A stretch of 64,000 bases of DNA from NCBI GenBank assembly GCA_049802875.1, contig JBARNH010000007.1, positions 67,194-131,193 on the forward strand, written 5' to 3'. The notes under the pieces were generated by a model. The model did not search any database and was not told where the DNA came from. It saw only the letters and a list, made by a program, of their open reading frames with translations. This DNA comes from Thermoplasmata archaeon. GTDB lineage: Archaea > Thermoplasmatota > Thermoplasmata > Lutacidiplasmatales > UBA184. Made by a program: the position numbers and the translations under genes. Below are positions 3,225 through 64,000 of the stretch, in pieces; within the stretch, counting starts at the first letter, position 1, and every line of letters begins with the position of its first letter.

Positions 3225-4841
3225 TTACGAGACGAATCCCAACAAGCACCGAGGATCACCTAGGGACACGGGTGATAACCCCCCTAGCCAGGGCAATGGG
3301 TGTTCGGAGTGGAGGACACACGGAAGGTAAACTAGGTCCAGGACACGCGGCGAACTAGCTCGAAGCTGAGTCGAGGCCTTCGGGTTAGTTGCCCGGACGT
3401 CGTTGACGTAGAGCTGCACGAGCCTCAACGCCTCGGCTTCCGTCGTCAACGGCGGAATGGCCTGTTGCCCAGGAATTGAGTACGACCCCACCCCCTGCAA
3501 AATCGCGGACAACCCTCCGCTCTGACTGATCTTCTGCTCCTTACCCGAAACACGACCATAGTAACCGGTGAGCGGTCGATTTCCACCGCGGGCAGAGAAG
3601 ACGTCTGTCAGGACCCGGAAGCTGCCCGCACCGGCCAGCGTGGTTACGTCGGTGGAGAAAGTGGCGGCAACGAGCAACACCTCGGGAACCTCTTTTCCCC
3701 GCTTCGTCCAGAGGACTCCGGTTTCGAAGGTATACGGAAGCTCCACGACCCAGAAGGGGACGAAAGTTCCGCCTCCGACGTTCAACAACTTAACTGCCCC
3801 TCTCCCCGACTGTGCGGCGCGAACCTCGGCTGCGCGTCGAAATATTTCCTCCTGGAATTTCAGGGACCGAAACGAAGTGGTCCAATCGCTCGGGGCGCTC
3901 CGTGAGAGCCAATCTACCACCGAGCCAAGTCTTTGGAGATACGCCAGTGGATGCGGGGGCACATTCAGAGAGTTTTCGGAGAGGTTGATCATGGAATTAA
4001 CCATCCGGATGACAGTCAGTTCCTGATCGACCGCCGTGGTCATGTACCCTAGTTCGGGGATCGATGACAAAGCTGTTCGCGCCGTTTTTAGTTCGCCCTC
4101 CGCCGCTCCGAGCAGTTTGCGGGGTAGTTCGAATTCCCGCCCTGTTACCAACTGGTCGACCGCCTTGCACTCCTCAGTAAGCCCGGCCAGCCGAGTCGAT
4201 AGGGCCGGCCAACGGCCTATGCTGGCGATTGCCTCCGAAGCCGTTGCGAGATTCTGCGAGATAAGATGAAAACGCTCGGGGTGGTTGCTCTGAGAAAGCT
4301 TCTCGACGACCAGGAGTGATTGATAGCAGGATGCCAGTCCGCTGGCTCGACGGATGAGCTCTCGAGCAGTCTCATCTACGGCCAGAGCTGAAATGGATTG
4401 TACTTTCGCATTGAAAACGGACACGGCTGCCGGGTTTTCACCCGAAGATGGGCGAAGGCTCGATATGAACGGAAGTGAGGCCAGCGGGGACGAGAGAAGT
4501 TGGAAGCAACGAAACCGGTACTGATCGCTTTCAGTGCTAAGGTGGGGCCGAATACCCGTGTTGAAGGCGGCGAGACGTGCCATTGGGTCCACATACTGCG
4601 ATCCCGAGACATCGAGACCCGGTGGAACCGTTTGTCGAACGAACGCTGTGACCTGGGCCATGAAATGGTCGAGAAATTGACGGGCATCGACGATTCTCTG
4701 CGATGTCCCGCAATAATCGCACGTTAGTATCTCTCCCTCGGAACGCGGGGAATAGGGAGCGCCGCATGCACTGCACCTTAGCCTATATTCGGAGAACATC
4801 GCGTCGGGCGCGAGCTGGCTGGTCGCTCCTACTCCCGTCAT
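3225..4841 (-). CDS. hypothetical protein with N-terminal CxxC-N13-CxxC zinc ribbon
   Basis: 538-aa ORF. The N-terminus reads CSACGAPYSPRSEGEILTCDYCGTS. No recognisable catalytic motifs. GC is lower than the surrounding DNA. It lies 33 bp downstream of ORF 4874..5968 on the same strand. Confidence 0.6.
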   Translation of the reverse strand: MTGVGATSQLAPDAMFSEYRLRCSACGAPYSPRSEGEILTCDYCGTSQRIVDARQFLDHFMAQVTAFVRQTVPPGLDVSGSQYVDPMARLAAFNTGIRPHLSTESDQYRFRCFQLLSSPLASLPFISSLRPSSGENPAAVSVFNAKVQSISALAVDETARELIRRASGLASCYQSLLVVEKLSQSNHPERFHLISQNLATASEAIASIGRWPALSTRLAGLTEECKAVDQLVTGREFELPRKLLGAAEGELKTARTALSSIPELGYMTTAVDQELTVIRMVNSMINLSENSLNVPPHPLAYLQRLGSVVDWLSRSAPSDWTTSFRSLKFQEEIFRRAAEVRAAQSGRGAVKLLNVGGGTFVPFWVVELPYTFETGVLWTKRGKEVPEVLLVAATFSTDVTTLAGAGSFRVLTDVFSARGGNRPLTGYYGRVSGKEQKISQSGGLSAILQGVGSYSIPGQQAIPPLTTEAEALRLVQLYVNDVRATNPKASTQLRASSPRVLDLVYLPCVLHSEHPLPWLGGLSPVSLGDPRCLLGFVS

Positions 4842-6010: not shown

Positions 6011-6029
6011 GGTGCAACGGTCGTTGCAC
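6011..6029. repeat. GGTGCAA-Nx-TTGCACC family palindromic motif
   Basis: GGTGCAACGGTCGTTGCAC (N4 spacer variant), upstream of the Zn-ribbon gene pair. Confidence 0.5.
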
Positions 6030-11242: not shown

Positions 11243-12367
11243 GTGCAGCCCTACGATCCACAACGTCCGGCGAGCCCCGGGACGTTTGCCGGACGTCACG
11301 AACTGTTGGAGTTCGCCGGCAATGCTCTGCGGGTCGCCGCGACACTTCATCGCGGGAGCGCGATTCTGCTTTACGGGTACCGGGGGAGTGGTAAGACCTC
11401 GGCCCTCCGAAAGATTCAATCCATTGTTAGAGACACTACCCCACACGGCGTTGTTATTGAAGTTCCACTCCGTGTGCCTAGCACAGAAGCGATGCTGGTC
11501 CACAGCATCGCCGAGATGGTACGTCGCGAAGTGACGTCCCAGGAAAAACTCACAAGCCGGATGAAGAAAGCGCTCGGAAACCTGAGCGCGGTAACGGTTC
11601 TGGGGAGCGGGATCGAGCGAACGAAACCACTACCCTTCACGCCCTCCACACTCCTCACAGTGTGGAAGGACGCACTCCTTGCACTCGGGGATCTGCCCCT
11701 TTTGGCAATCAGCATCGACGACGCCGAGCTTCTCAAGGCCGGCGAAATTGGGATTCTCAAGACGATGGTTGAAACAGACTCTCCAGTGCCGATTCTGATG
11801 GTGGTTGCTGGTGGACCTGAGCTCATCGAGAAACTCTCTCTTCGCGAAGCGTCACCAATCCTTCGGTCGTTCTCGGGTGCAGTCTTTGACATCGGCCAGT
11901 TCTCGGAGGTGGAAACTCTGGAGGCCCTGGAAGCCCCCGTTAAACAGATCAAGGGGACCGGACGGTGGGACGCCTCGGCGGTTAAGGCGATTCACCATCT
12001 GACACACGGATACCCCTACCTGGTGCAATGCTTCGCGGCGGCGGCATATCAAGACAGTCGACGCATCAAGGGTGAAGACGTTCAACGGGCGATCCCTGGA
12101 GCCATGCAACTGGCTTCGAGCTGGCTCGAACGCGAGCTTCCGGAAGCCTCAGACGAAGACATCAGGGCATTCGCCAAAATCGCCACTTCAGGCAAAGTCG
12201 AGTTTCGAAGTTCCGACGCCATCCGGATGGGCATCAATCACATCTATCTCTCAAGGCTCACTACTCAAGGAGTCCTCAAGCGGCTGGCCCGGGGTCATTA
12301 CGAGCTTCGAATGGCGCCCGCGATCGCATACTTTCACGCGCTGAGGCGAGGGCTAAGCGCAGTCTGA
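11243..12367 (+). CDS. AAA+ ATPase of the archaeal-ATPase (Arch_ATPase-like) family with C-terminal winged-helix-like region
   Basis: Walker A YGYRGSGKTSAL. Walker B LLAISIDDAEL. Overall architecture resembles orphan archaeal ATPases. An AT-rich region lies upstream. Confidence 0.65.
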   Translation: MQPYDPQRPASPGTFAGRHELLEFAGNALRVAATLHRGSAILLYGYRGSGKTSALRKIQSIVRDTTPHGVVIEVPLRVPSTEAMLVHSIAEMVRREVTSQEKLTSRMKKALGNLSAVTVLGSGIERTKPLPFTPSTLLTVWKDALLALGDLPLLAISIDDAELLKAGEIGILKTMVETDSPVPILMVVAGGPELIEKLSLREASPILRSFSGAVFDIGQFSEVETLEALEAPVKQIKGTGRWDASAVKAIHHLTHGYPYLVQCFAAAAYQDSRRIKGEDVQRAIPGAMQLASSWLERELPEASDEDIRAFAKIATSGKVEFRSSDAIRMGINHIYLSRLTTQGVLKRLARGHYELRMAPAIAYFHALRRGLSAV

Positions 12368-15590: not shown

Positions 15591-16313
15591 TCATGCTGGT
15601 TCAATCGAACTGACAGGAATGCAACTCTGGACCATGTTGGCGAAACGCGACCAGCGAGAGAGGTTTGTCCGGCTTTCAGGGCTGCCTTGAAGCAATCTCG
15701 ATAACGTGTCGACATACGTCTTCCGATCGTTGACGCGACTCAGCACCAACTTGAACTTCCTCAGAGCAACTGACTGGAGGAACCGGCCGAACAGCTCACG
15801 GACCTCTCCTAGATTGACTTCCTGACTCATGATGCCGAAGAGATCGGTGAGGTCGTGGGGGCGTCCGGCTAGGAGCTTCGTCGCCCACAGCCCTTCCAAG
15901 CGCACCACATCCACCTGACTGCTTAGGGGCCCGGAGAGAAGCTCGAGGCGAACGGACCGTGGGCTACGAAGCAGCCAATCTCCGGGGATGGTCACGCCCG
16001 AGTCTCTGTCGCGCACCCCGCCTATCATCAGGTCTAGCGTGATCGCCCGATATTCCCATCGTTGAACCTCGAGGCTGGCTCTCCCTTGGTGGAAAACACG
16101 ATGCCCCGGGGCCAACAGTAGGTGGTGAGATTTTAGCCAGTCGGCCCAATCAACCCTACTCCGTTCGGAGACGACGACGTCGACATCAACCGAGTACCGT
16201 GGGGTGCCGTAGGCGGCGACCGCGTAGCCACCCACAACCACGCCATCGAGCTCCGTCGGCCAAGCCTCGAGCAGCCTGGCTACCTGGAGCTCACGCTGAT
16301 CCGCGTCGATCAT
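15591..16313 (-). CDS. abiEii: AbiEii-like nucleotidyltransferase (type IV toxin-antitoxin toxin candidate)
   Basis: The ORF-track ORF is 15591..16454. The likely start is the ATG at 16313 (MIDADQ...). It has the pol-beta NTase motif GG-x13-DVDV (VVGGYAVAAYGTPRYSVDVDVVV). It overlaps the upstream wHTH gene by 23 nt. Confidence 0.55.
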   Translation of the reverse strand: MIDADQRELQVARLLEAWPTELDGVVVGGYAVAAYGTPRYSVDVDVVVSERSRVDWADWLKSHHLLLAPGHRVFHQGRASLEVQRWEYRAITLDLMIGGVRDRDSGVTIPGDWLLRSPRSVRLELLSGPLSSQVDVVRLEGLWATKLLAGRPHDLTDLFGIMSQEVNLGEVRELFGRFLQSVALRKFKLVLSRVNDRKTYVDTLSRLLQGSPESRTNLSRWSRFANMVQSCIPVSSIEPA

Positions 16314-16875
16314 GCACGAGTTCCGCAGCGTTCGCGAAGATGGCGGGGTGCGCACGTATGAGCTCCAACACGTCGGATCTCGGAATGACGGGCTCCCCGG
16401 CGTGAAACGCCACCTTGACTTCCTCGAGAGGCACGAGCTCGATCCGCGGTCCAATTCGTCGCCTCGACCGTCGCGAAAGTCCCTTTGCGCGCAAGTAACG
16501 GTCCCAGCGCTCCAATGAAGTCGCCGGAACCGCGAGCGTGTAAACGCGAACGAAGACGGAAGGCGACGTTCGGTATCGTCCGCCGGTCCACACCTCGACC
16601 GCGTTCGCTCCCGCCCAGGCCTTCGTCCCCGGACCCCTCAGGAGGGTTTCCCGGATGCGTCGCCACTCGAACCGCCTGAGATCTGGCCGCTCCGTTGGGC
16701 CAAGCCGACGGTACCGCCCTCTCCCGACACGTGCGATGTGCCCGCGCGCCTTCAGTTCGCTGAGCACCTTGCCTGCACGGGGATTGGCCACGCGACTCGC
16801 GAAGTCTCGCACAGTGAATTCTGAGATCCCGTACAGATGGTCAATGGCATCGACGTACGCGGTCGCCATGGTCAC
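16291..16875 (-). CDS. abiEi: AbiEi-like winged-helix antitoxin/transcriptional regulator
   Basis: 194 aa with an N-terminal wHTH (FTVRDFASRV..GKVLSELKARGHIARVGRGRY). GTG start at 16875 (ATG at 16869). It sits directly upstream of the NTase gene with overlapping ends. Confidence 0.55.
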   Translation of the reverse strand: MTMATAYVDAIDHLYGISEFTVRDFASRVANPRAGKVLSELKARGHIARVGRGRYRRLGPTERPDLRRFEWRRIRETLLRGPGTKAWAGANAVEVWTGGRYRTSPSVFVRVYTLAVPATSLERWDRYLRAKGLSRRSRRRIGPRIELVPLEEVKVAFHAGEPVIPRSDVLELIRAHPAIFANAAELVHDRRGSA

Positions 16876-24001: not shown

Positions 24002-24339
24002 GACGCACGGAGGCTGAGGCGGGTTTTATGTCTACCCTTGTCGGGAGACAAGCCAAGACCGGCTCAGAAGGATCCCTTTGCCGGCGGGCGTGTGCTCTTT
24101 GATTACTTGACCTTCTTCTAACGGGGGGGTTGAGTAAGGACCTGTATATCGCCGCCGGGTTGAGCTAGCCGAATGTCACGTTAGTACAACGCATCGCGGA
24201 CCCGGCTGGCCCCAGTCGACGCTGTACCCAAGCTGGGTGAAACCGCGATCGCGTCCCCGGGGGGCCCTCTCTCCGAGCCCGTTTCAGCCAACGGCCCAGA
24301 TGCCCCGATAGCAGACTGCGGACACACATATGTCATCGC

Positions 24340-24347
24340 TTATATAT
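24340..24347 (+). promoter_or_regulatory. TATA-box-like element (TTATATAT) upstream of the arsR-like gene
   Basis: An AT-rich octamer ~25-35 bp upstream of candidate start codons (GTG 24369 or ATG 24384). This is archaeal-type spacing. Confidence 0.45.
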
Positions 24348-24383
24348 TATTCAACATATGCCTCGATCGTGCCCACTCCGGGA

Positions 24384-24722
24384 ATGGCCTTCGAGGTCCT
24401 GTCAGATCCGACACGACTCCGTATTGTTGAACAGCTCCGGTGCGGCGAGCGGTCGGTAGGCACTCTCGTCTCTACGCTCTCCGTCTGCCAACCCGGGATC
24501 TCGCGCCACCTTCGGATTCTTCACGACCGCGGATTCGTTCGAGTCCGCGCCGACGGCCAGCGACGACTGTACTCCTTGCGGCCGCAACCTTTCCGGGATA
24601 TCGATCGGTGGATGAACGACTATCGCGACCTCGTTGAGGACCGCTTGGATCGGCTCGAGCAGCTGGTCGAATCTGACCGGTCGAAATCACACTCCCCTAA
24701 GCGAGAACCGCGGAGGGGCTGA
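24384..24722 (+). CDS. ArsR/SmtB-family transcriptional regulator
   Basis: FEVLSDPTRLRIVEQLRCGERSVGTLVSTLSVCQPGISRHLRILHDRGFV (HTH ArsR). Alternative starts at 24330 or 24369. Confidence 0.75.
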   Translation: MAFEVLSDPTRLRIVEQLRCGERSVGTLVSTLSVCQPGISRHLRILHDRGFVRVRADGQRRLYSLRPQPFRDIDRWMNDYRDLVEDRLDRLEQLVESDRSKSHSPKREPRRG

Positions 24723-24725
24723 ACG

Positions 24726-25253
24726 ATGTCAGCAGCCAGTAGTGACCGCAGACGCCCCCATGAGCCGATCACGTTCTCCCGTCCCAGCCCGGTGGACAGG
24801 GAAGTGACCCGGGTATTCCGAGCTCCGATCGAACGAGTTTTTCACCTGTTCACGGACCCCGCGACACTCCCCTACGTGATGGCGCCAGACCATCGCGCGG
24901 TCACGATCGAGCAGCTCGAGTTTCGTAAGGGAGGAAAGTACTCAATCCGGGTCATGCAAACCGATGGTTCGTCGATACGGGTCCACGGGGAGTACCGGGA
25001 AGTGGACCCTCCCCGCCGAGTAGTCAACACATTCGAGGTTGACACGTTGCCCGGCTTTTCGGCGTTAGAGACCGATGAGTTCGAGCCGGTGGGCGATTTC
25101 ACCCGCCTGACCGTCCGGTGGAAGTACCAGCGACCGGAAGACGTGGCCAAGATGGCCGGCCCCTCGCTGGAACGGGCAGTCACCACAATGTGGGAGACCG
25201 TTGACGACCTCCTCGAGAATGGGCTGCCGACGGCGACCCCTACCGAGGCGTGA
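24726..25253 (+). CDS. SRPBCC-family protein (AHSA1-like), partner of ArsR
   Basis: 175 aa. Its start is 3 nt after the arsR stop. The ArsR-Aha1-domain gene pair is a common arrangement. Confidence 0.7.
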   Translation: MSAASSDRRRPHEPITFSRPSPVDREVTRVFRAPIERVFHLFTDPATLPYVMAPDHRAVTIEQLEFRKGGKYSIRVMQTDGSSIRVHGEYREVDPPRRVVNTFEVDTLPGFSALETDEFEPVGDFTRLTVRWKYQRPEDVAKMAGPSLERAVTTMWETVDDLLENGLPTATPTEA

Positions 25254-42008: not shown

Positions 42009-42500
42009 CTAGCGCAGCTCTCTCTGCAACCTATCGAAAGTCTGTCCCCATCCACCCTGGAACCCCTCTTCGAGGGATCCGACGCCCCCTGGGAAAGAGC
42101 CCGTTGCGAGAACTTTCACAAGGACAGTCACTCGCGTCCTCTTGGGGCTGAGCTTCCCGAAAGTCACCGTTTGAAGCGCCTCGAAAGGGACGGTGCCCTC
42201 CCCGGGTGTTGTGGCGCTCCTGAATACCAGAAGTTCTGGAACGACAATCTCCACAATGGTCCCAGCCGTTTCGAAGGTGATCCCCTCGGTGTTTCGGTCA
42301 TGAATTCTTATCGCACCTCCGGGCCTCGGATCCAACTCGAAGACGAGAGTGACGGCGCCCTCGGGGCCCCAAAACTTCGCTGCTTTCTTTGGGTCGGTGA
42401 ACATATTGAAGACCGACTCCCGCGGGAAGTCGAAGTCCCTCGATATCTTCACGGCGCTACGCTCTCCGTCCGTTGATTCCTTCCTCCACTTTTGGTTCAT
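42009..42500 (-). CDS. SRPBCC-family protein (AHSA1-like), partner of ArsR
   Basis: 163 aa. It overlaps the arsR stop by 4 nt. Second ArsR-Aha1 pair in the window. Confidence 0.7.
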   Translation of the reverse strand: MNQKWRKESTDGERSAVKISRDFDFPRESVFNMFTDPKKAAKFWGPEGAVTLVFELDPRPGGAIRIHDRNTEGITFETAGTIVEIVVPELLVFRSATTPGEGTVPFEALQTVTFGKLSPKRTRVTVLVKVLATGSFPGGVGSLEEGFQGGWGQTFDRLQRELR

Positions 42501-42805
42501 ACTGTTTCCTCTTTGAGCGTCTTCTCACGCCGGTCGAGCCTGCTGTTCCACCTCTTGGCCATATCGGCAGCCCACACTTGGATTTGGTTCACTGACTGCG
42601 GATTGAACGCGTACAGCCTTCGCTGGGCTCGCTTCTCCATATGAATCACGTTCGCCTCCCTGAGCACTCTGAGGTGTTGCGAAATCGCCTGCGGAGTCAC
42701 GTCGAACTCGTCGCAGATCTGGGACGCGCTGAGCCTGCCCCTCTGGGCAAGAATCTCCACTACTCTGCGCCTGCGCGGTTCTGCCAGGACAGAGAAGGCG
42801 TCCAT
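42497..42805 (-). CDS. ArsR-family transcriptional regulator
   Basis: FSVLAEPRRRRVVEILAQRGRLSASQICDEFDVTPQAISQHLRVLREANVI. An AT-rich promoter region lies at 42806-42860. Confidence 0.75.
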   Translation of the reverse strand: MDAFSVLAEPRRRRVVEILAQRGRLSASQICDEFDVTPQAISQHLRVLREANVIHMEKRAQRRLYAFNPQSVNQIQVWAADMAKRWNSRLDRREKTLKEETV

Positions 42806-44294: not shown

Positions 44295-44316
44295 AGGTGC
44301 AATTGCCCTTGCACAC
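44295..44316. repeat. GGTGCAA-N6-TTGCACC family palindromic motif
   Basis: AGGTGCAATTGCCCTTGCACAC. Confidence 0.65.
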
Positions 44317-44514
44317 ACTCCCGGTGAGATCCTCCGCCGTTTCGCCGGACCCTTCATTCAAACGCGGTAGGTCCTGACATCGGAGTCTCTGCCACGAGTT
44401 TTTGCCCGGCACCGATCCGGTAAACGCTATTCTCGGGAGTAAACCGACTAACCGGCGCGCCGAATCGTTTAGATAGACCTTCCTTGGCTATACGACGGGG
44501 GTTCGGCCTCTAGT

Positions 44515-46803
44515 TTGCCCCCACACCGGATGAAACACCGTAGCCGTATTGTGCCACTGCTATCAGTAATCCTCGCCTGTGCGGCGTTAGTCCTGGCTTC
44601 CCTCTTGATCATGCCCACGTTCATTGGTGACAATACGGGCGCCGCGGCGCCCGAAGGTCACGCCGGCGGGCCGCTTTCACCAGCCATCAAGCAAGGGGCC
44701 AGTGTTGCTGCGGCGTGCGACGACGATACGACCTGCACGACGGGTGCCATTACGAATGTGGACGCAGGGGACACCCTGGTTGTGGTAGTGACGGAATTCA
44801 CCACCTCGCGAGGGGCCCCTTCCACGGTAGAGGAAGTGACTGCTGGCGGTGACCACGCTCTCGCTCTTCTCGGGTCCACCCCCTGCATCACGGGCAGCGG
44901 TCATGGAGTGACCGCCATCTATGGGCTAGCCAACGTCGCGGCGCAAACATCGATAACATTCACGGTCAATTACACTTCGGCCTCGTACTACACCATCCAT
45001 GGCCTCGACGTAGAGGGGGCAGCGGCCGCTCCGTTCGAGACCGCGGGCACGGGCGTCTGCTCGAGCGCTGCTGGCACGACGGGTGCTTCGAGTGTGTCCA
45101 CCACCGTGCCGGACGATTTGGTCATCCTGGGTGTGGAGGTCAGGGCTTCGACGACCTTTGCTGAGAGCGGCGGTGACACACTCGTGACTCAGGCTGCAAC
45201 CACCGGGGCGGACCTGGATTCCGGAGCGATGCTCGACGAGACCGACGCTTCCACAGGATCGATATCCCTCGCGGCGACCTTCACGAGTGCGTCCTGGTCG
45301 TCGATCGCGGTGGCACTGAAGACCTCGCCCCTCGTGTCCGGAACGGTCACCCCGTCCACCGCGGCCATTGACGCTGGTGAATCCATAGGCCTGGAAACGA
45401 CCGCAGCCACGGGTGGAACTCCTCCCATCACGTACCAGTGGTACGCCGCTACGTCGACCAGTAGTTGCAGCTCCGGGACATTGATTGGCGGCGCGACCGG
45501 TCTATCCTACTCCACTCCGGCGCTGTCGATCGGGAGCTACTACTACTGTGTCTGGGCTACGGACAACAGCACGCCAACCAACGAAGTCGCCTATTCCAAC
45601 GTCGCAAACGTCAGTGTTGACCCAGCCCTCGCGGTCACGATTACCCCCAACGCTCCCACCATTGCCGGCGGACAGACGGTGCAGTTGACTGCCAACCCGT
45701 CGGGAGGCACCGGAGCGGACAGTTACGCCTGGTATTCGGGGACCGCCTGCTCGGGCACGGTACTATCCACTTCCCAGGTCTACACGACCCCCGCATTGAC
45801 AGCCACGACGACGTTCTGTGTGTCGGTTACGGACAGTTCGTACACTCCATCGACCGCGTCGGCCAACGACACAGTGACCGTGGCGGCGCCCTCCTCACCG
45901 CTCACGGTCACGATCGCTCCGGCGACTCCCTCCATCGATTCAGGTCAATCCGTAGTACTCACCGCCAACCCTTCGGGAGGCACCGCGCCTTACACTTACG
46001 CGTGGTACTCGGGAGGCGCGTGCTCCGGTAGCCAACTGGCGAGCACACCAGCCTACACAACCCCAGCCCTCACGGCGACCACCGCCTACTGTGTGGCAGC
46101 GACGGACAGCGAGACCTCGCCGGTCACTGCGACGGCCGTGGCTACGGTCACGGTGAGCGCGTCGCCACTCTCGGTGACGATCACTCCCAGCGCCCCCACG
46201 ATCGATAACGGGCAGACGGTGAGCCTGACCGCCAACCCCTCGGGAGGCACCGGCGCGGACACGTACGCATGGTACTCGGGAGGCAGCTGCGCAGGTTCCG
46301 TATTGGCCGTCACCAAGGACTACACGACACCCACGCTCGCGGCCAACACAACGTACTGTGTCGCCGCCACCGACAGCGCATACCTGCCGGTCACTGCGAC
46401 GGCCCGCGCCACGGTGACGGTGGCCGCCGCGGCGTCAGTTCCGCCGACCACTCCGCCCCCGTCGGGATCATCGGCGACGCTGCCTTCGTACGTGTATCCG
46501 GTGGTCGGAGTTCTAATCGCGGCTTTGCTCGCAGCGCTCTTACTCGCGCTTTTGGCCCGCCGTGGTAGGAAAGTGAAATTCTTGGAGATAGGGCTCCCGG
46601 AGAATACCCTATGGTCCGTGACGCTGAAGGAAGCGGCCCTGAGCTCGACGAGCTCGAGCATCACCTTTAGCGCATCGAAGGGTGAGCATCCGTACGTCGT
46701 AAAACCTGTAGCCGGTTACGTCCCGTCCCCCGCGTCGGGGACCGTGAAGGTGGGTAAGGATCCGGCCGAAGTGAAGGTCACCTTTACGCCGCTCCCCCCA
46801 TAG
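44515..46803 (+). CDS. large surface protein with four tandem ~90-aa Ig/PKD-like repeats, a TM helix and a short cytoplasmic tail
   Basis: N-terminal signal anchor. Repeats share LTANPSGGTxxxYxWYSGxxCSGxxLxxTxxYTTPALTATTxYCVxxTDS. A TM helix (VVGVLIAALLAALLLALLA) is followed by a ~85-aa tail. Confidence 0.75.
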   Translation: MPPHRMKHRSRIVPLLSVILACAALVLASLLIMPTFIGDNTGAAAPEGHAGGPLSPAIKQGASVAAACDDDTTCTTGAITNVDAGDTLVVVVTEFTTSRGAPSTVEEVTAGGDHALALLGSTPCITGSGHGVTAIYGLANVAAQTSITFTVNYTSASYYTIHGLDVEGAAAAPFETAGTGVCSSAAGTTGASSVSTTVPDDLVILGVEVRASTTFAESGGDTLVTQAATTGADLDSGAMLDETDASTGSISLAATFTSASWSSIAVALKTSPLVSGTVTPSTAAIDAGESIGLETTAATGGTPPITYQWYAATSTSSCSSGTLIGGATGLSYSTPALSIGSYYYCVWATDNSTPTNEVAYSNVANVSVDPALAVTITPNAPTIAGGQTVQLTANPSGGTGADSYAWYSGTACSGTVLSTSQVYTTPALTATTTFCVSVTDSSYTPSTASANDTVTVAAPSSPLTVTIAPATPSIDSGQSVVLTANPSGGTAPYTYAWYSGGACSGSQLASTPAYTTPALTATTAYCVAATDSETSPVTATAVATVTVSASPLSVTITPSAPTIDNGQTVSLTANPSGGTGADTYAWYSGGSCAGSVLAVTKDYTTPTLAANTTYCVAATDSAYLPVTATARATVTVAAAASVPPTTPPPSGSSATLPSYVYPVVGVLIAALLAALLLALLARRGRKVKFLEIGLPENTLWSVTLKEAALSSTSSSITFSASKGEHPYVVKPVAGYVPSPASGTVKVGKDPAEVKVTFTPLPP
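45340..46440 (+). repeat. intragenic tandem DNA repeats (~270 bp unit x4) encoding the Ig-like modules
   Basis: Near-identical segments such as CCAACCC(G/T/C)TCGGGAGGCACCG...TACGC(C/G/A)TGGTA(T/C)TCGGG occur at ~45700, ~45962 and ~46232. Confidence 0.6.
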
Positions 46804-59082: not shown

Positions 59083-59538
59083 TCACCGGACGACAGCAGC
59101 GATCGGCAGGGCACGGAGAAAATCGTCGATGGCGGGCGCCGGACCCGGAATTCGCCAGAACATCGTGCCCTCGCTCCCGGGACGGAGAGGCATTGCCCCA
59201 AGCGCGGTGGTGCGGCTTCCGTCCGACCGTGCCTTGATGGCCAGGTCGCAGACGTCCGGATCTGGGGAGAGGCCGTGCTCCTTGCCCACATGGACCGCGA
59301 TCGTCGCGGAGTTGTCGAATTCCCACGCGGGCGCCTCGGTTCCGGCCACCCATGGGCCGTTCAGGACTCGAGTCCGAGGAAGGGTGGGTATCGCCCCCTT
59401 CCAGGCCATGTAGACGCGTTTACTCGGAAGGAACTGGTGCGGACCGGTCCACGGGACCAGGATTCGCTGGTCAGTGAACGCAATCCGGACCGGGCCGTAG
59501 CCTAGGGTGACTTCGAACGCCGTAGGAATATCCCCCAA
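59083..59538 (-). CDS. hypothetical protein
   Basis: 151-aa ORF, and the only protein-like frame in a 770-bp gap. Confidence 0.35.
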   Translation of the reverse strand: MGDIPTAFEVTLGYGPVRIAFTDQRILVPWTGPHQFLPSKRVYMAWKGAIPTLPRTRVLNGPWVAGTEAPAWEFDNSATIAVHVGKEHGLSPDPDVCDLAIKARSDGSRTTALGAMPLRPGSEGTMFWRIPGPAPAIDDFLRALPIAAVVR

Positions 59539-59690
59539 CAGGAGCTCTGGTACTGTGAAGGACGGCTCAGCCGAGAGAACTAGGGGAGAACCTCAGGCCT
59601 CGCAGAACGCCGCTCCCGAGGTCGATAGAGCACCGCACCGTGGACAATTGGGGGTCACGACCTCGGAGAAGTCTCGAGGACTAAAGGAGT

Positions 59691-59710
59691 AGGTGCAAGG
59701 CCGATTGCAC
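59691..59710. repeat. GGTGCAA-N6-TTGCACC family palindromic motif
   Basis: AGGTGCAAGGCCGATTGCAC. Confidence 0.65.
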
Positions 59711-59740
59711 AGAGAGCCGTCGCGGCACCGGAGAGTTTGG

Positions 59741-60193
59741 TTAGGCGGACTTCCCGCTTCCGCCAGTCGCTCCGAGTGCAGCAATCTGGGCACGCGCCGC
59801 CTGCGCGATGTCAGAGCCGGTGTTCGCGTGGCCATTGATCCCCCAACCTCCTTCCGGGGATTCATAGATCAGTACCCACGTTCGCTCCGCGAGCGACGGA
59901 TCGGCTGCCGCCTTCGCGATGATCGCCGTTAGCTCAGCGACCACTCCGAGTTGCTTCTCGCGGTCCAGAACGCCAACCGGTGTCAACACTTGGACTCGCA
60001 CGTAGTTACTGTCCCCATCAACGTTCGATATTGAATCCGCGGGGAGGTCGTGCACGAAGGCCGCCGTGTTCTTCCGGAAGAGTGGGAGCGGGGGGACCTT
60101 CTCCCACTTCATCACCGCGGCCGCGAGATCCTTCGCGAGCGTGAGCCGGTCGGCGAATGTCCCGGTCTTCGCGTACACATCAATCATCGGCAT
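59741..60193 (-). CDS. tautomerase-family protein (tandem 4-OT-like domains)
   Basis: Begins MPMIDVYAKTG (Pro1 after Met removal). About 150 aa. Divergent from the TetR gene. Confidence 0.55.
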   Translation of the reverse strand: MPMIDVYAKTGTFADRLTLAKDLAAAVMKWEKVPPLPLFRKNTAAFVHDLPADSISNVDGDSNYVRVQVLTPVGVLDREKQLGVVAELTAIIAKAAADPSLAERTWVLIYESPEGGWGINGHANTGSDIAQAARAQIAALGATGGSGKSA

Positions 60194-60301
60194 GGGTCGA
60201 ATCAAGCATTATGATGGTCATCATATAATGGTTGGCCAAGGGCGTCGGGTGAAACCGAATGCGGTGGCTTAACAAACCCTGAAGCGCCTCCGCGAAGCGA
60301 A

Positions 60302-60889
60302 ATGGCTAGGGATAGTAGAGATCGGATGGTGGTGACTGCGGCGTCGCTCCTTGGATCCCGTGGGGCCGGGGGCGTCTCTCTGACCGACATCTTGGAGGGT
60401 AGCAAGGCACCTCGTGGGTCGATCTATCACCATTTCCCCGGCGGGAAACGCGAACTCGTCGAGGATGCGATGCGATGGACCTCGGAACAGGTACTGGGTT
60501 ACCAGCGCAGATGCACCGGCCGCACGCCGGCCGACGTGTTGGAACACTTCGTCGACTTTTTCCGCCAATCGATGATCTCGTCGGGGTGTGCGGCAGGATG
60601 CCCGGTGGCGGGCGTCATCCTCGATACTTACGGGTCGAAAGGGAGCCTCAAGCAAGCGGGTCGCGCGAGTTTTCGAGCGTGGGTCACGCTTCTCGCGAAA
60701 CAGCTCGAAGCAGCCGGAACTCCCCGTGGGAAAGCGCCTGATCTTGCCGCGATGGCGTTGGCGTCGGTCGAGGGGGCATTGATCCTCTGCCGGGCGGAGG
60801 GCAACATTCGTCCTCTGGAGCTTGTCGCGGAACAGCTTCGCTTCTTGGCCCGCCGGTTCAGCACCACCCGTCCCTTGAGATCGCACTAG
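60302..60889 (+). CDS. TetR/AcrR-family transcriptional regulator
   Basis: MVVTAASLLGSRGAGGVSLTDILEGSKAPRGSIYHHFPGGKRELV (TetR HTH). Confidence 0.75.
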   Translation: MARDSRDRMVVTAASLLGSRGAGGVSLTDILEGSKAPRGSIYHHFPGGKRELVEDAMRWTSEQVLGYQRRCTGRTPADVLEHFVDFFRQSMISSGCAAGCPVAGVILDTYGSKGSLKQAGRASFRAWVTLLAKQLEAAGTPRGKAPDLAAMALASVEGALILCRAEGNIRPLELVAEQLRFLARRFSTTRPLRSH

Positions 60890-60950
60890 CAATGCGCTGG
60901 GCGACGGTGAACATGCTTAGACCAACCTCTGACCCCGTTTCAGGACCCCG

Positions 60951-61871
60951 GTGAGCCGTTATATCAAGGGATTCCGACGAAGGGACATGCCGAACACACC
61001 TCGATATGCGGTGGTGACCAGCGCAACCCGCGGGGCGGGAAAGGCCGTCGCTATCGAGCTTGGGGGAGCGGGTTGGACGATCGCAGTGACCGGCAGAAGC
61101 ACCCGCGAGACTCCCAGCCGGGAAGGGATCGGGGGCACCCTTGAGGACACGGCAACGGCGGTCGAGCATGCGGGGGGAAGATGCCTGCCCACCCGATGCG
61201 ACCTCTCCCGCGAAGAAGACTTGACGACGTTGACAGAGAAGGTGAAGAGAGAATTCCCGACGCTTGACCTCCTCGTGAACTGCGCCTGGGGAGGTTACGA
61301 GGAACACGACCTCGAAAATTTCGTTCGACCGTTCTGGGAGCAGCCGACTCATCATTGAGATCGGATGTTCAATTCTGGAGTCCGTCTCACACTTCGGACT
61401 TCGGCCCGTCTCACCCCACTCCTGATGCCTAACCGCCGTGGTTGCATCTTCAATATTGTGGCCTGGTTGGAGGGAGAGTACCTGGGAAACCTCTACTACG
61501 ACACGGCAAAGTCCGCCATTATCCGAATGACTGAGGGGATGGCAAAGGAGCTCCGTCCCTACGGGGTTGCGGCCATCGCGTTGGTTCCCGGGTTCATGCG
61601 CACGGAACGCGTCACGGCATCGCATGCCGTGCATCCCTTCGACCTCAGCTCGACGGAATCGCCCTCGTATCTTGGGAGAGCCGTGGCGGCGCTGGCCAGC
61701 GACCCAGATATCCTCGCAAAATCCGGCCAGCTCCTTTACGTGGGGAATCTGGCGAAAGTCTACGGGTTCACCGACATCGACGGGACTCAGCCGCCCGTAT
61801 TCCGACCCGGCGATTTGGAACGTGCCTACGGAGAATCGCAATCGGGCGAGCCCCCGTCAGATCCTCCCTGA
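60951..61871 (+). pseudogene. short-chain dehydrogenase/reductase (SDR) interrupted by in-frame TGA at 61356-61358
   Basis: ORFs 60951..61358 (TGxxxGxG: VVTSATRGAGKAVA) and 61365..61871 (YDTAKSAI = YxxxK) are in the same frame. The junction reads ...EQPTHH*DRMFNSGV, where the SDR consensus has Trp (E.WDRVF.VN). This fits a TGG to TGA change. Confidence 0.6.
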
Positions 61872-62092
61872 GCGCGAGCGCGCTCACCCAGGCAAGCCGT
61901 GAGGGCCACCGAAGGTGCAGCCCCAATTACGCGCCCGACTTCCCATTGGAAGAGAGGATTCCGGTAACCCACGTCAAGAAGCTTGTGAACGCGATCAGAG
62001 GCCCATGAGCGGACTGGCATGAGACAGCGGTCGCCAGTACCCCTGGGGGTACAGTATTACTCCCCGTAGCCGTTCCGTCGTGGGATTCAGGG

Positions 62093-62386
62093 ATGGCGAC
62101 GTACGCGCTTTTCGAGGTCGATTGGCACGATCAGAATATGGCCAAGGAGTATCGGGAGAAGTTCGGACCGGTTCTCGATAAATATCGGGGCAAGACCCTC
62201 TGCGCCGGCCCGCCTCAGGTGATCGAAGGGAGCTGGAATCCGGCGAGAGTGGTCATACTCGAGTTTCCGACCACCGACGACTTTCGCACCTGGTATGCCT
62301 CTCCGGAGTATGCGCCCGTGCTCAAACTTCGTAAGGAAGGCGCGACCACCAAGACGGTGGTGGTCGTCGAAGGGCCGACTCGCTAA
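62093..62386 (+). CDS. DUF1330-family protein
   Basis: 97 aa: YALFEVDWHDQNMAKEYREKFGPVLDKYRGK...VVILEFPTTDDFRTWYASPEY. Confidence 0.7.
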   Translation: MATYALFEVDWHDQNMAKEYREKFGPVLDKYRGKTLCAGPPQVIEGSWNPARVVILEFPTTDDFRTWYASPEYAPVLKLRKEGATTKTVVVVEGPTR

Positions 62387-62522
62387 CCGGCCCGGAACGG
62401 TCCCCGACCTGTCCGCCGCTGTTGCGGCTTCCGTGAGCGCTTCCTAAGAGCCGCCCCTCCTTCGCCAATCGCGAACAATGCCGGCTCCGAGGAGGCGAGC
62501 GGGGGCGCGTCGCCCGACCGGT

Positions 62523-63188
62523 ATGCCTGCATCGGCCCGTGCTTTCTGGACTCGATTATACGCGGAGATCCCTACTCAAGGCCTCCCGTGGGCCAACACG
62601 GGTCCGTTCCCGCCACTGGTTCGAGCGGTGGAGAACGGCTGGTTGAGTACGCCAGGTCCCGTGCTCGATGTTGGGTGTGGAGTCGGCACGAACACCCTCT
62701 GGCTCGCCAGTCAGGGTTTCCAAGCGACCGGGATTGATATCGCCCCCGGGGCGGTCGCGGCGGCGGTATCGAATCGGGGGGCGACACTTCGGAATCCAAA
62801 TTTCTTGGAGGATGACGTGCTCGTCAGTTCTCTACCCACGGCGAAATTCCGATCTGCGGTTGACGTGGGATGTTTCCAGACCCTTCCCCCGCGTACGCGA
62901 AGGGCGTTTTCGGCCGGCCTTGCCCGCCTGCTCTCACCGGGAGCGCCCTATCTTCTCTTTTGGGTCGCCCGAGAGGAGACGGGACCATGGGGTCCTCCCC
63001 ACCGCCTGTCGGTCGGCGAGGTCGTCGACACCTTCGAGTCGTTGTTCCTCGTCGAGCAGGTCGAGTATCGACCCCGCACCGTTCGCCTCACGCGCCAACT
63101 GATGCGGTCGGCTCGCCCCCTGGCGACTCTCTCCGGATACACCGCCCGACTCGTGCGCCGGCGCGCTCCCCAACCTCCGGCCAAATGA
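62523..63188 (+). CDS. class I SAM-dependent methyltransferase
   Basis: Motif I VLDVGCGVGTNTLWLA. Acidic post-I motif GIDIAP. ORF-track start 62478. Confidence 0.65.
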   Translation: MPASARAFWTRLYAEIPTQGLPWANTGPFPPLVRAVENGWLSTPGPVLDVGCGVGTNTLWLASQGFQATGIDIAPGAVAAAVSNRGATLRNPNFLEDDVLVSSLPTAKFRSAVDVGCFQTLPPRTRRAFSAGLARLLSPGAPYLLFWVAREETGPWGPPHRLSVGEVVDTFESLFLVEQVEYRPRTVRLTRQLMRSARPLATLSGYTARLVRRRAPQPPAK

Positions 63189-63681
63189 CCTGATTTTGGC
63201 GTGATCGAGCGTGATCGAACGAACACCGGATCTTGGGTTAGGCCAGGTTCATCGCCTTCCGAACTGATCCAGATCTCGGATCCCTTCCTAGTTGGGGGAC
63301 CTGATTCGATCGGATTTCCGACGGGATCGACTGGCGCCCGCTGCTGGGGGTTTAGGAAGGTACGTGACGTCAAATGTCGGGTTCAATGGTCGCGGTTTCC
63401 CATCCGCTGCGTCAGCGCGAGGGTTCCACTTCGAGGTACGACGCCGACGCTCCCGTGATTCGAGCTCAAGCCTCGAAGAGGAAATGAGCCGTCGACGGGG
63501 CGCTGGCGCACCCCGGACCTGGTGATCAACCGTTTTGGGGTGAAACGTACGCGGCCGCCCGACTCCGGTGCTCGAGGATTCGACCCTGGTGTCACCCGAG
63601 CCCCGGCGCGGATCCCCTCTAGAGTGTGACGACGACCCTTCCCAGGGCGCGGCCCTGAATCGAATGGATTTCGGGTGGAAA

Positions 63682-63702
63682 GGGTGCAACCGACATTGCA
63701 CC
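63682..63702. repeat. GGTGCAA-N6-TTGCACC family palindromic motif
   Basis: GGGTGCAACCGACATTGCACC. Confidence 0.65.
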
Positions 63703-63770
63703 TCCCGAAGTAGCGGGGCGAGTGAGCCCTTGCAGAACCGCTTAATCCCGAAGTGAGGTCCGATGTTCCG

Positions 63771-64000
63771 ATGAGTGACGTCAACCCCGCGATGGCCGCC
63801 GTGTTCCAAAGGTTCATCGAGGCGTGGAATCTCCGCGATCCCGCGGAGCGTCGCCGAGTACTCGAAGAAACGTGCGCACCTGAGATCGAGATATCGAGCC
63901 CGTACGGTCACTATCGAGGTATCGACAAACAATTCGATGAAATCTCTCAGTTTCGAAAGCAGTTCCCTGAGGGTCATTGCGTCAGCCGGATCGTCTCTCA
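63771..64000 (+). CDS. partial CDS (5' end), NTF2/SnoaL-like small protein, runs off window
   Basis: ATG at 63771 preceded by GAGGT. MSDVNPAMAAVFQRFIEAWNLRDPAERRRVLEETCAPEIEI... Confidence 0.4.
   Translation, partial: MSDVNPAMAAVFQRFIEAWNLRDPAERRRVLEETCAPEIEISSPYGHYRGIDKQFDEISQFRKQFPEGHCVSRIVS

Follow-up and report, generated by a model that had tools for sequence, protein, structure and literature searches.

Two open reading frames that lie end to end in the genome of an uncultured archaeon of the Thermoplasmata raise the question of whether a conserved gene has been lost, has been divided into two working parts, is read through its stop codon, or has been recorded wrongly. The window, by which we mean the whole stretch of 64,000 nucleotides that was analysed, carries these frames on its forward strand at 60951-61358 (135 aa) and 61365-61871 (168 aa), in the same frame and with a TGA plus two codons between them. 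Over 61335-61382 the DNA reads TTC TGG GAG CAG CCG ACT CAT CAT TGA GAT CGG ATG TTC AAT TCT GGA. The premature TGA (61356-61358, forward strand) occupies the codon of Trp136, residues being counted from the GTG at 60951 (codon 24 is 61020-61022), and differs from TGG by a G-to-A transition at 61358, a base that is G in the sibling contigs L001/L038, L036 and L040.

The two frames are halves of a single SDR gene (60987..61871, forward strand) of DHRS1-like type, disrupted by the premature stop. When TGA was translated as Trp, the 294-aa product gave one Pfam adh_short match (PF00106; residues 7-210, model positions 2-188 of 195), scoring 86.9 bits against a gathering cutoff of 26.6 (E = 1.6e-24), and an adh_short_C2 match as well, so that both families extend across the stop. 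Since one continuous adh_short match runs over the junction, the preliminary description was correct in recognizing an SDR gene interrupted by an in-frame TGA and in assigning the two ORFs to one enzyme. With Trp in place of the stop, the product shares 99% identity with the intact protein P0001 (306 aa) of a sibling assembly and with the 294-aa gene call. The best NCBIfam model was NF006159 (PRK08303), at 223.4 bits and under its cutoff of 364.

The N-terminal fragment (60951..61355, forward strand) covers the Rossmann fold from strand beta1 to strand beta4, with the cofactor-binding motif T-S-A-T-R-G-A-G and with N-C-A-W-G-G, and it contains neither the catalytic Tyr nor the catalytic Lys. 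The C-terminal ORF (61365..61871, forward strand) begins at the codon of Met139, holds the Y183-x-x-x-K187 pair and ends at the natural TGA stop (61869-61871). Both Y183 and K187 are invariant among the SDR homologues, in agreement with the YxxxK dyad that had been read in the downstream half. A TGxxxGxG cofactor motif had been read in the upstream half; the stretch in fact has Ser in place of the first Gly. No uninterrupted frame in the window encodes both halves of the fold, while the sibling alleles L001, L036 and L040 each have one.

Gene callers also use the GTG at 60951 as the start, as did the preliminary description. The true start is, however, likely to be the ATG at 60987 (294 aa), where the orthologues begin at the equivalent position. 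A predicted promoter element, the TATA-like box TTATAT (60959..60964, forward strand), lies about 26 nt upstream of this ATG, and boxes reading TTAAT, TTTAT or TTATG are equally far from the starts at the orthologous loci L002-L006. This positional conservation supports ATG 60987 over GTG 60951. Moreover, the spacing suggests that the SDR gene may have its own promoter and give rise to a leaderless mRNA. Directly upstream lies a gene for a TetR-family regulator with an LmrA/YxaF-like C-terminal domain (60302..60889, forward strand; Pfam TetR_N and TetR_C_13_2), which neighbours the SDR gene in all sibling contigs.

Thousands of relatives were retrieved from 5.8 billion proteins, and of those with a named source the closest come from MAGs labelled Thermoplasmata archaeon. 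In an alignment of the best 120 of these thousands, Trp occupies position 136 in 120 of 120 sequences, and Met139, encoded by the ATG at 61365, is equally invariant (120/120). At the DNA level, all six Thermoplasmata orthologues (71-73% identity) and one bacterial homologue (48% identity) have TGG at codon 136, so that the comparison gave the same codon for each close orthologue. In more distant SDRs this position is occupied by G, Y or F. The Trp that had been described as conserved in classical SDRs in general is therefore specific in its invariance to the DHRS1-like subfamily.

The best PDB sequence matches of the protein are 7bsx, a bacterial SDR (E = 2e-48), and 2qq5, human DHRS1 (E = 1e-31), both DHRS1-like classical SDRs, and human DHRS1 has Trp at the aligned site too (F-W-E-T-P-A-S-M-W-D). 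Shared with this group are the YxxxK and NxAxGG motifs, together with a C-terminal Y-G-F-T-D extension held in common with 7bsx. Unlike its relatives, the protein has Ser for the first Gly of TGxxxGxG (G24S in T23-S-A-T-R-G-A-G30; codon 61020-61022), and the window copy is shortened by the stop. The substitution is present in every allele of the species, the intact ones included, whereas the Gly is kept in 117 of 118 aligned relatives. When the intact allele was modelled with AlphaFold2, it gave a Rossmann fold (pLDDT 91.5) with strands at residues 19-22, 43-48, 77-82 and 107-110. Strand beta4 and a lower-confidence loop are followed in this model by helix 133-157, which starts just before Met139 and has Trp136 in its first turn.

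A neighbouring gene encodes a DUF1330 protein, and contigs with exactly this protein sequence led to seven other assemblies of the same species, six from SRA runs and the seventh an NCBI MAG. Their DNA is 99.6-100% identical to that of the window, and all alignments are free of gaps. Logan contig L001 (SRR27973877) aligns with window positions 59721-64000 over 4280 bp without gaps at 99.77% identity; one of its ten differences is G for A at 61358, which yields TGG and the intact 306-aa protein P0001. A same-species allele with G at this base and an intact protein confirms that a single transition turned TGG into TGA. The TGG allele occurs in three of the seven assemblies, with an intact gene of 294 or 306 aa: L036/L043 (SRR28060913), L038, which is the same contig as L001, and L040/L046 (SRR28024218). 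The TGA allele occurs in the other four, namely L034/L044 (SRR28061557), L035/L042 (GCA_049583385.1), L037/L045 (SRR28023494, 100% identical to the window) and L039 (SRR28041785), and hence in five of eight when the window is counted. The carriers beyond the window comprise three per-run Logan assemblies, from separate SRA runs, and one NCBI MAG. In the corresponding protein cluster the 168-aa fragment was found on three contigs and the 135-aa fragment on one plus two; the intact proteins are of 306, 306 and 294 aa.

Together with the window, the TGA carriers form four nested haplotypes, from L039 to L044, to L042, to the window with L045, which differ at 61966, 61192 and 61221. Such nesting indicates an inherited stop allele that later gained further mutations, a pattern that error would not give. 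The mutation, its direction and its recurrence in separate assemblies were thus observed directly: the stop results from a real and heritable G-to-A transition for which the natural population is polymorphic. Two NCBI MAGs, GCA_049583385.1 and GCA_049800175.1, match the window almost, though not quite, base for base. The NCBI annotation of GCA_049583385.1 has no protein at the SDR locus, which would be consistent with a pseudogene call. An exact 32-mer had no match in the JGI metagenomes. Elsewhere in the same contigs, the TGA-type and TGG-type haplotypes show three base differences within four bases at 63352-63355 (TTTAGG versus TCCACG), where gene callers disagree, giving either a 238-aa minus-strand ORF or none and then a SnoaL_2 gene from 63771.

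The polymorphisms themselves bear on how strongly the gene is maintained. Over the eight assemblies the SDR gene has four, all of them protein-changing (I81T, M91L, W136stop and P281S) and none synonymous, while 13 flanking genes have 6 protein-changing and 11 synonymous ones; a one-sided Fisher test of this contrast, in which the SDR gene contributes just four polymorphisms, gives p = 0.035. Two of the changes arose later than the stop. Ile81 to Thr (61192, forward strand) occurred within the TGA lineage and introduced a residue found in none of the 120 homologues, and Met91 to Leu (61221, forward strand) marks the haplotype of the window and L045. P281S (61791) is found in the two rearranged TGG strains with an otherwise 'intact' gene, L036/L043 and L040/L046, at a position where 116 of 120 relatives have Pro. 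The allele of SRR27973877 is the only one without any unusual change besides G24S. Taken together, these data suggest that the SDR gene may be under relaxed constraint in this Thermoplasmata species.

We also considered whether selection had been relaxed before the stop arose. In 103 conserved columns the intact allele shows 3 deviations, a number equal to the median for the family, and is otherwise a typical member, so that earlier decay, if any, was limited to G24S. The SDR gene of the TGA allele contains no second lesion, be it a frameshift or a further stop; either the allele is very young, or it is still somewhat constrained. A generally decaying genome was rejected as an explanation, as the same-frame neighbouring ORFs that were checked are separate genes (for instance an ArsR plus AHSA1 pair). 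No other split gene was found among the same-frame neighbouring ORFs checked by Pfam, in a crude scan for in-frame stops between long open stretches that is noisy in GC-rich DNA. The window holds two such pairs of ArsR/HTH and AHSA1 (SRPBCC) genes, at 24330-25253 (forward strand) and 42009-42805 (reverse strand). It further encodes an AAA ATPase with an AbiEi_4 antitoxin-like C-terminal domain (11243-12367, forward strand) and, a few kb away, a weakly matching AbiEii toxin-like nucleotidyltransferase (15591-16454, reverse strand).

The rearrangement in the two strains with P281S is an observation in its own right and involves a palindromic repeat. The palindrome GTGCAA-N6-TTGCAC occurs in the window in 8 exact copies (0 expected) and in 32 copies with at most two mismatches (1.4 expected), with an extended consensus of about GTGGGTGCAA-N6-TTGCACCCAC. 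The exact copies lie at 6012, 12540, 23544, 35275, 39159, 44297, 59693 and 63684, and 24 more have one or two mismatches. Copies are intergenic in 29 of 32 cases, though about 78% of the window is coding. With its conserved arms and free loop, the element resembles REP elements or a putative protein-binding site; it had no Rfam match. Three copies were found in 6.9 kb of a related MAG locus (L002), and almost none in the bacterial loci. In the contigs from SRR28060913 and SRR28024218 (L036/L043 and L040/L046), window positions 44297-44914, in reverse complement, are fused to the sequence that starts at 59693, and the breakpoints lie inside the palindrome copies at 44297-44314 and 59693-59710. 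The arrangement is what one would expect had the approximately 15.4 kb between two copies of the palindrome been inverted. Near the breakpoints, at about 59721, contigs from SRR28023494 and SRR27973877 break off, as does another SRR28023494 contig at about 44336; the second junction of the approximately 15-kb rearrangement was searched for and not recovered. The repeat and the rearrangement are more unusual than the SDR nonsense allele.

For the SDR gene, we conclude with a probability of roughly 0.86 that the window carries an ordinary, recent nonsense allele, null or strongly hypomorphic, and hence a young unitary pseudogene of a DHRS1-like SDR. A strong hypomorph is the most that is expected, should UGA now and then be read as Trp. 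The G-to-A change in the last base of the Trp136 codon (61358) creates a premature UGA, and translation would end after residue 135. The resulting N-terminal piece would contain the cofactor-binding half of the Rossmann fold and neither the catalytic Tyr nor Lys, while the catalytic half would at best be made separately and at a low level. Loss of enzyme activity is what the separation of the cofactor-binding and catalytic halves, as delimited by Pfam and the AlphaFold2 model, would lead one to expect.

The SDR allele resembles segregating nonsense alleles and unitary pseudogenes of prokaryotes in its single-base stop at a conserved codon, in the intact alleles and orthologues that exist alongside it, in showing no recoding signal, and in the signs of relaxed constraint. 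Nothing essential sets it apart; the allele is common in the small set of assemblies that could be compared (5/8, with the window) and has as yet acquired no second lesion.

Among the alternatives, we regard it as unlikely that the TGA allele is not null and that low-level reading of UGA136 by tRNA-Trp, or reinitiation at Met139, leaves sufficient activity for it to persist as a tolerated or regulated variant. Activity retained in either way would also explain a second, independent hit at the same codon. A scan of the JGI metagenome contigs for F-W-[D/E]-Q-P-x3-TGA-[D/E]-x-M-F returned at least one contig, JAABUQ010044522.1 (L049, 3673 bp), which at 3283-3321 encodes ...FWEQPIER*DSMF... (the asterisk marking the stop) in an SDR that is 41.7% identical and otherwise intact to the contig end. 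The TGA of L049 is probably a coincidental pseudogene or an error. With TGG to TGA among the easiest one-step nonsense mutations, this single occurrence probably equals the chance expectation, the size of the family in metagenomes (thousands) being an estimate.

A functional split gene, in which translation would stop at the UGA and restart at Met139 to give an active two-piece SDR without residues 136-138, is very unlikely. In Haloferax volcanii, reinitiation is 40-60% efficient at a distance of 13-14 nt and is abolished by about 22 nt (PMC10666635). With 6 nt between stop and ATG, the SDR locus is within this range, so that some C-terminal fragment could be made. Also in keeping with a split are the position of the break at the very start of helix 133-157, after the lower-confidence loop of the model, the survival of the TGA allele through at least three later substitutions, and the hit at the same codon in the distant homologue L049. 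Against these points, a split would remove the invariant Trp136 (120/120), and the coexistence of intact alleles argues that it is no fixed arrangement. Moreover, the gene gained two substitutions after the stop, both nonsynonymous, and I81T introduced a residue absent from 120 relatives. A promoter or ribosome-binding site before ATG 61365 had been raised as a sign of a split gene; no Shine-Dalgarno-like or TATA-like element precedes this ATG, which is the family-invariant Met139 and hence not a newly evolved start that was selected as such. With stop and next ATG just 6 nt apart on a single mRNA, the locus does resemble translationally coupled gene pairs (Huber et al. 2019 and 2023). In natural coupled pairs, on the other hand, the genes encode distinct subunits and most often share 4 or 1 nt, whereas the SDR 'pair' is an accident beside a conserved internal Met.

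Similarly improbable is recoding or read-through, by which UGA136 would be read as Trp, through near-cognate tRNA-Trp or a suppressor tRNA, or as selenocysteine, to give a full-length enzyme. TGG to TGA is, from what is known in bacteria, the one nonsense change whose natural read-through restores the wild-type protein, and the independent TGA at the Trp136 codon of L049 could be taken to point the same way. The reading of UGA by tRNA-Trp is established from bacteria and carried over to archaea by analogy only, and a single same-codon TGA among the probably thousands of metagenome family members, itself an estimate, is no more than chance would give. TGA is, by direct observation, in normal use as a stop here. 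It is the commonest stop in the window and ends 32 of the 63 long ORFs, about half; of ten TGA-terminated proteins that were scanned, eight match Pfam families, and in several of these eight (with M28, M19, ABC2_membrane and Abhydrolase_1 domains) the model is matched to its end before the TGA. The earlier statement that TGA is not generally read as Trp here is thus upheld, and general reassignment of TGA (tables 4 and 25) is ruled out by stop usage and by the Pfam domains that are complete before TGA.

Selenoprotein sites align with Cys in homologues. As in selenoprotein genes and TGA-reassigned codes, the TGA of the SDR gene lies in frame within a conserved enzyme domain; unlike in these systems, the homologous residue is Trp, no SECIS was detected, TGA is the main stop, and strains of the same species have TGG. 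An Rfam search of 59500-63000 (E ≤ 1) gave no SECIS or other match except a chance-level snoU82P on the opposite strand (E = 0.31), and the whole window gave none at gathering scores. No tRNA gene was found in the window. Nor is there significant RNA structure in the 101 nt that surround the stop, since 17 of 200 shuffled versions fold equally well (z = -1.55). Selenocysteine is therefore ruled out by Trp, rather than Cys or Sec, in 120 of 120 homologues and by the want of a SECIS or a significant local fold.

Scarcely credible, finally, is a sequencing or assembly error that hides a true G at 61358 and an intact gene: a near-identical contig does carry TGG, and the variable base lies directly 5' of GATC, as does the SNP at 63228, which raised the idea of methylation-linked base-calling error, but TGA recurs in four other assemblies and, with the window, on four haplotypes that differ at neighbouring sites, neither random nor systematic error (the methylation-linked kind included, which is hereby ruled out) would track a nested haplotype genealogy across separate assemblies, and gap-free alignments at 99.6-100% identity between assemblies indicate that these are not noisy long-read assemblies.

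For annotation, the two ORFs should accordingly be recorded as one pseudogene or one disrupted allele of a DHRS1-like SDR, and neither as two genes nor as a case of recoding. The finding has little importance beyond annotation and opens no long-standing question. It does provide a clean case in which independent assemblies prove a nonsense allele genuine, one that segregates within a natural population of an uncultured archaeon, and as such it may be of interest for the study of gene loss in natural populations.
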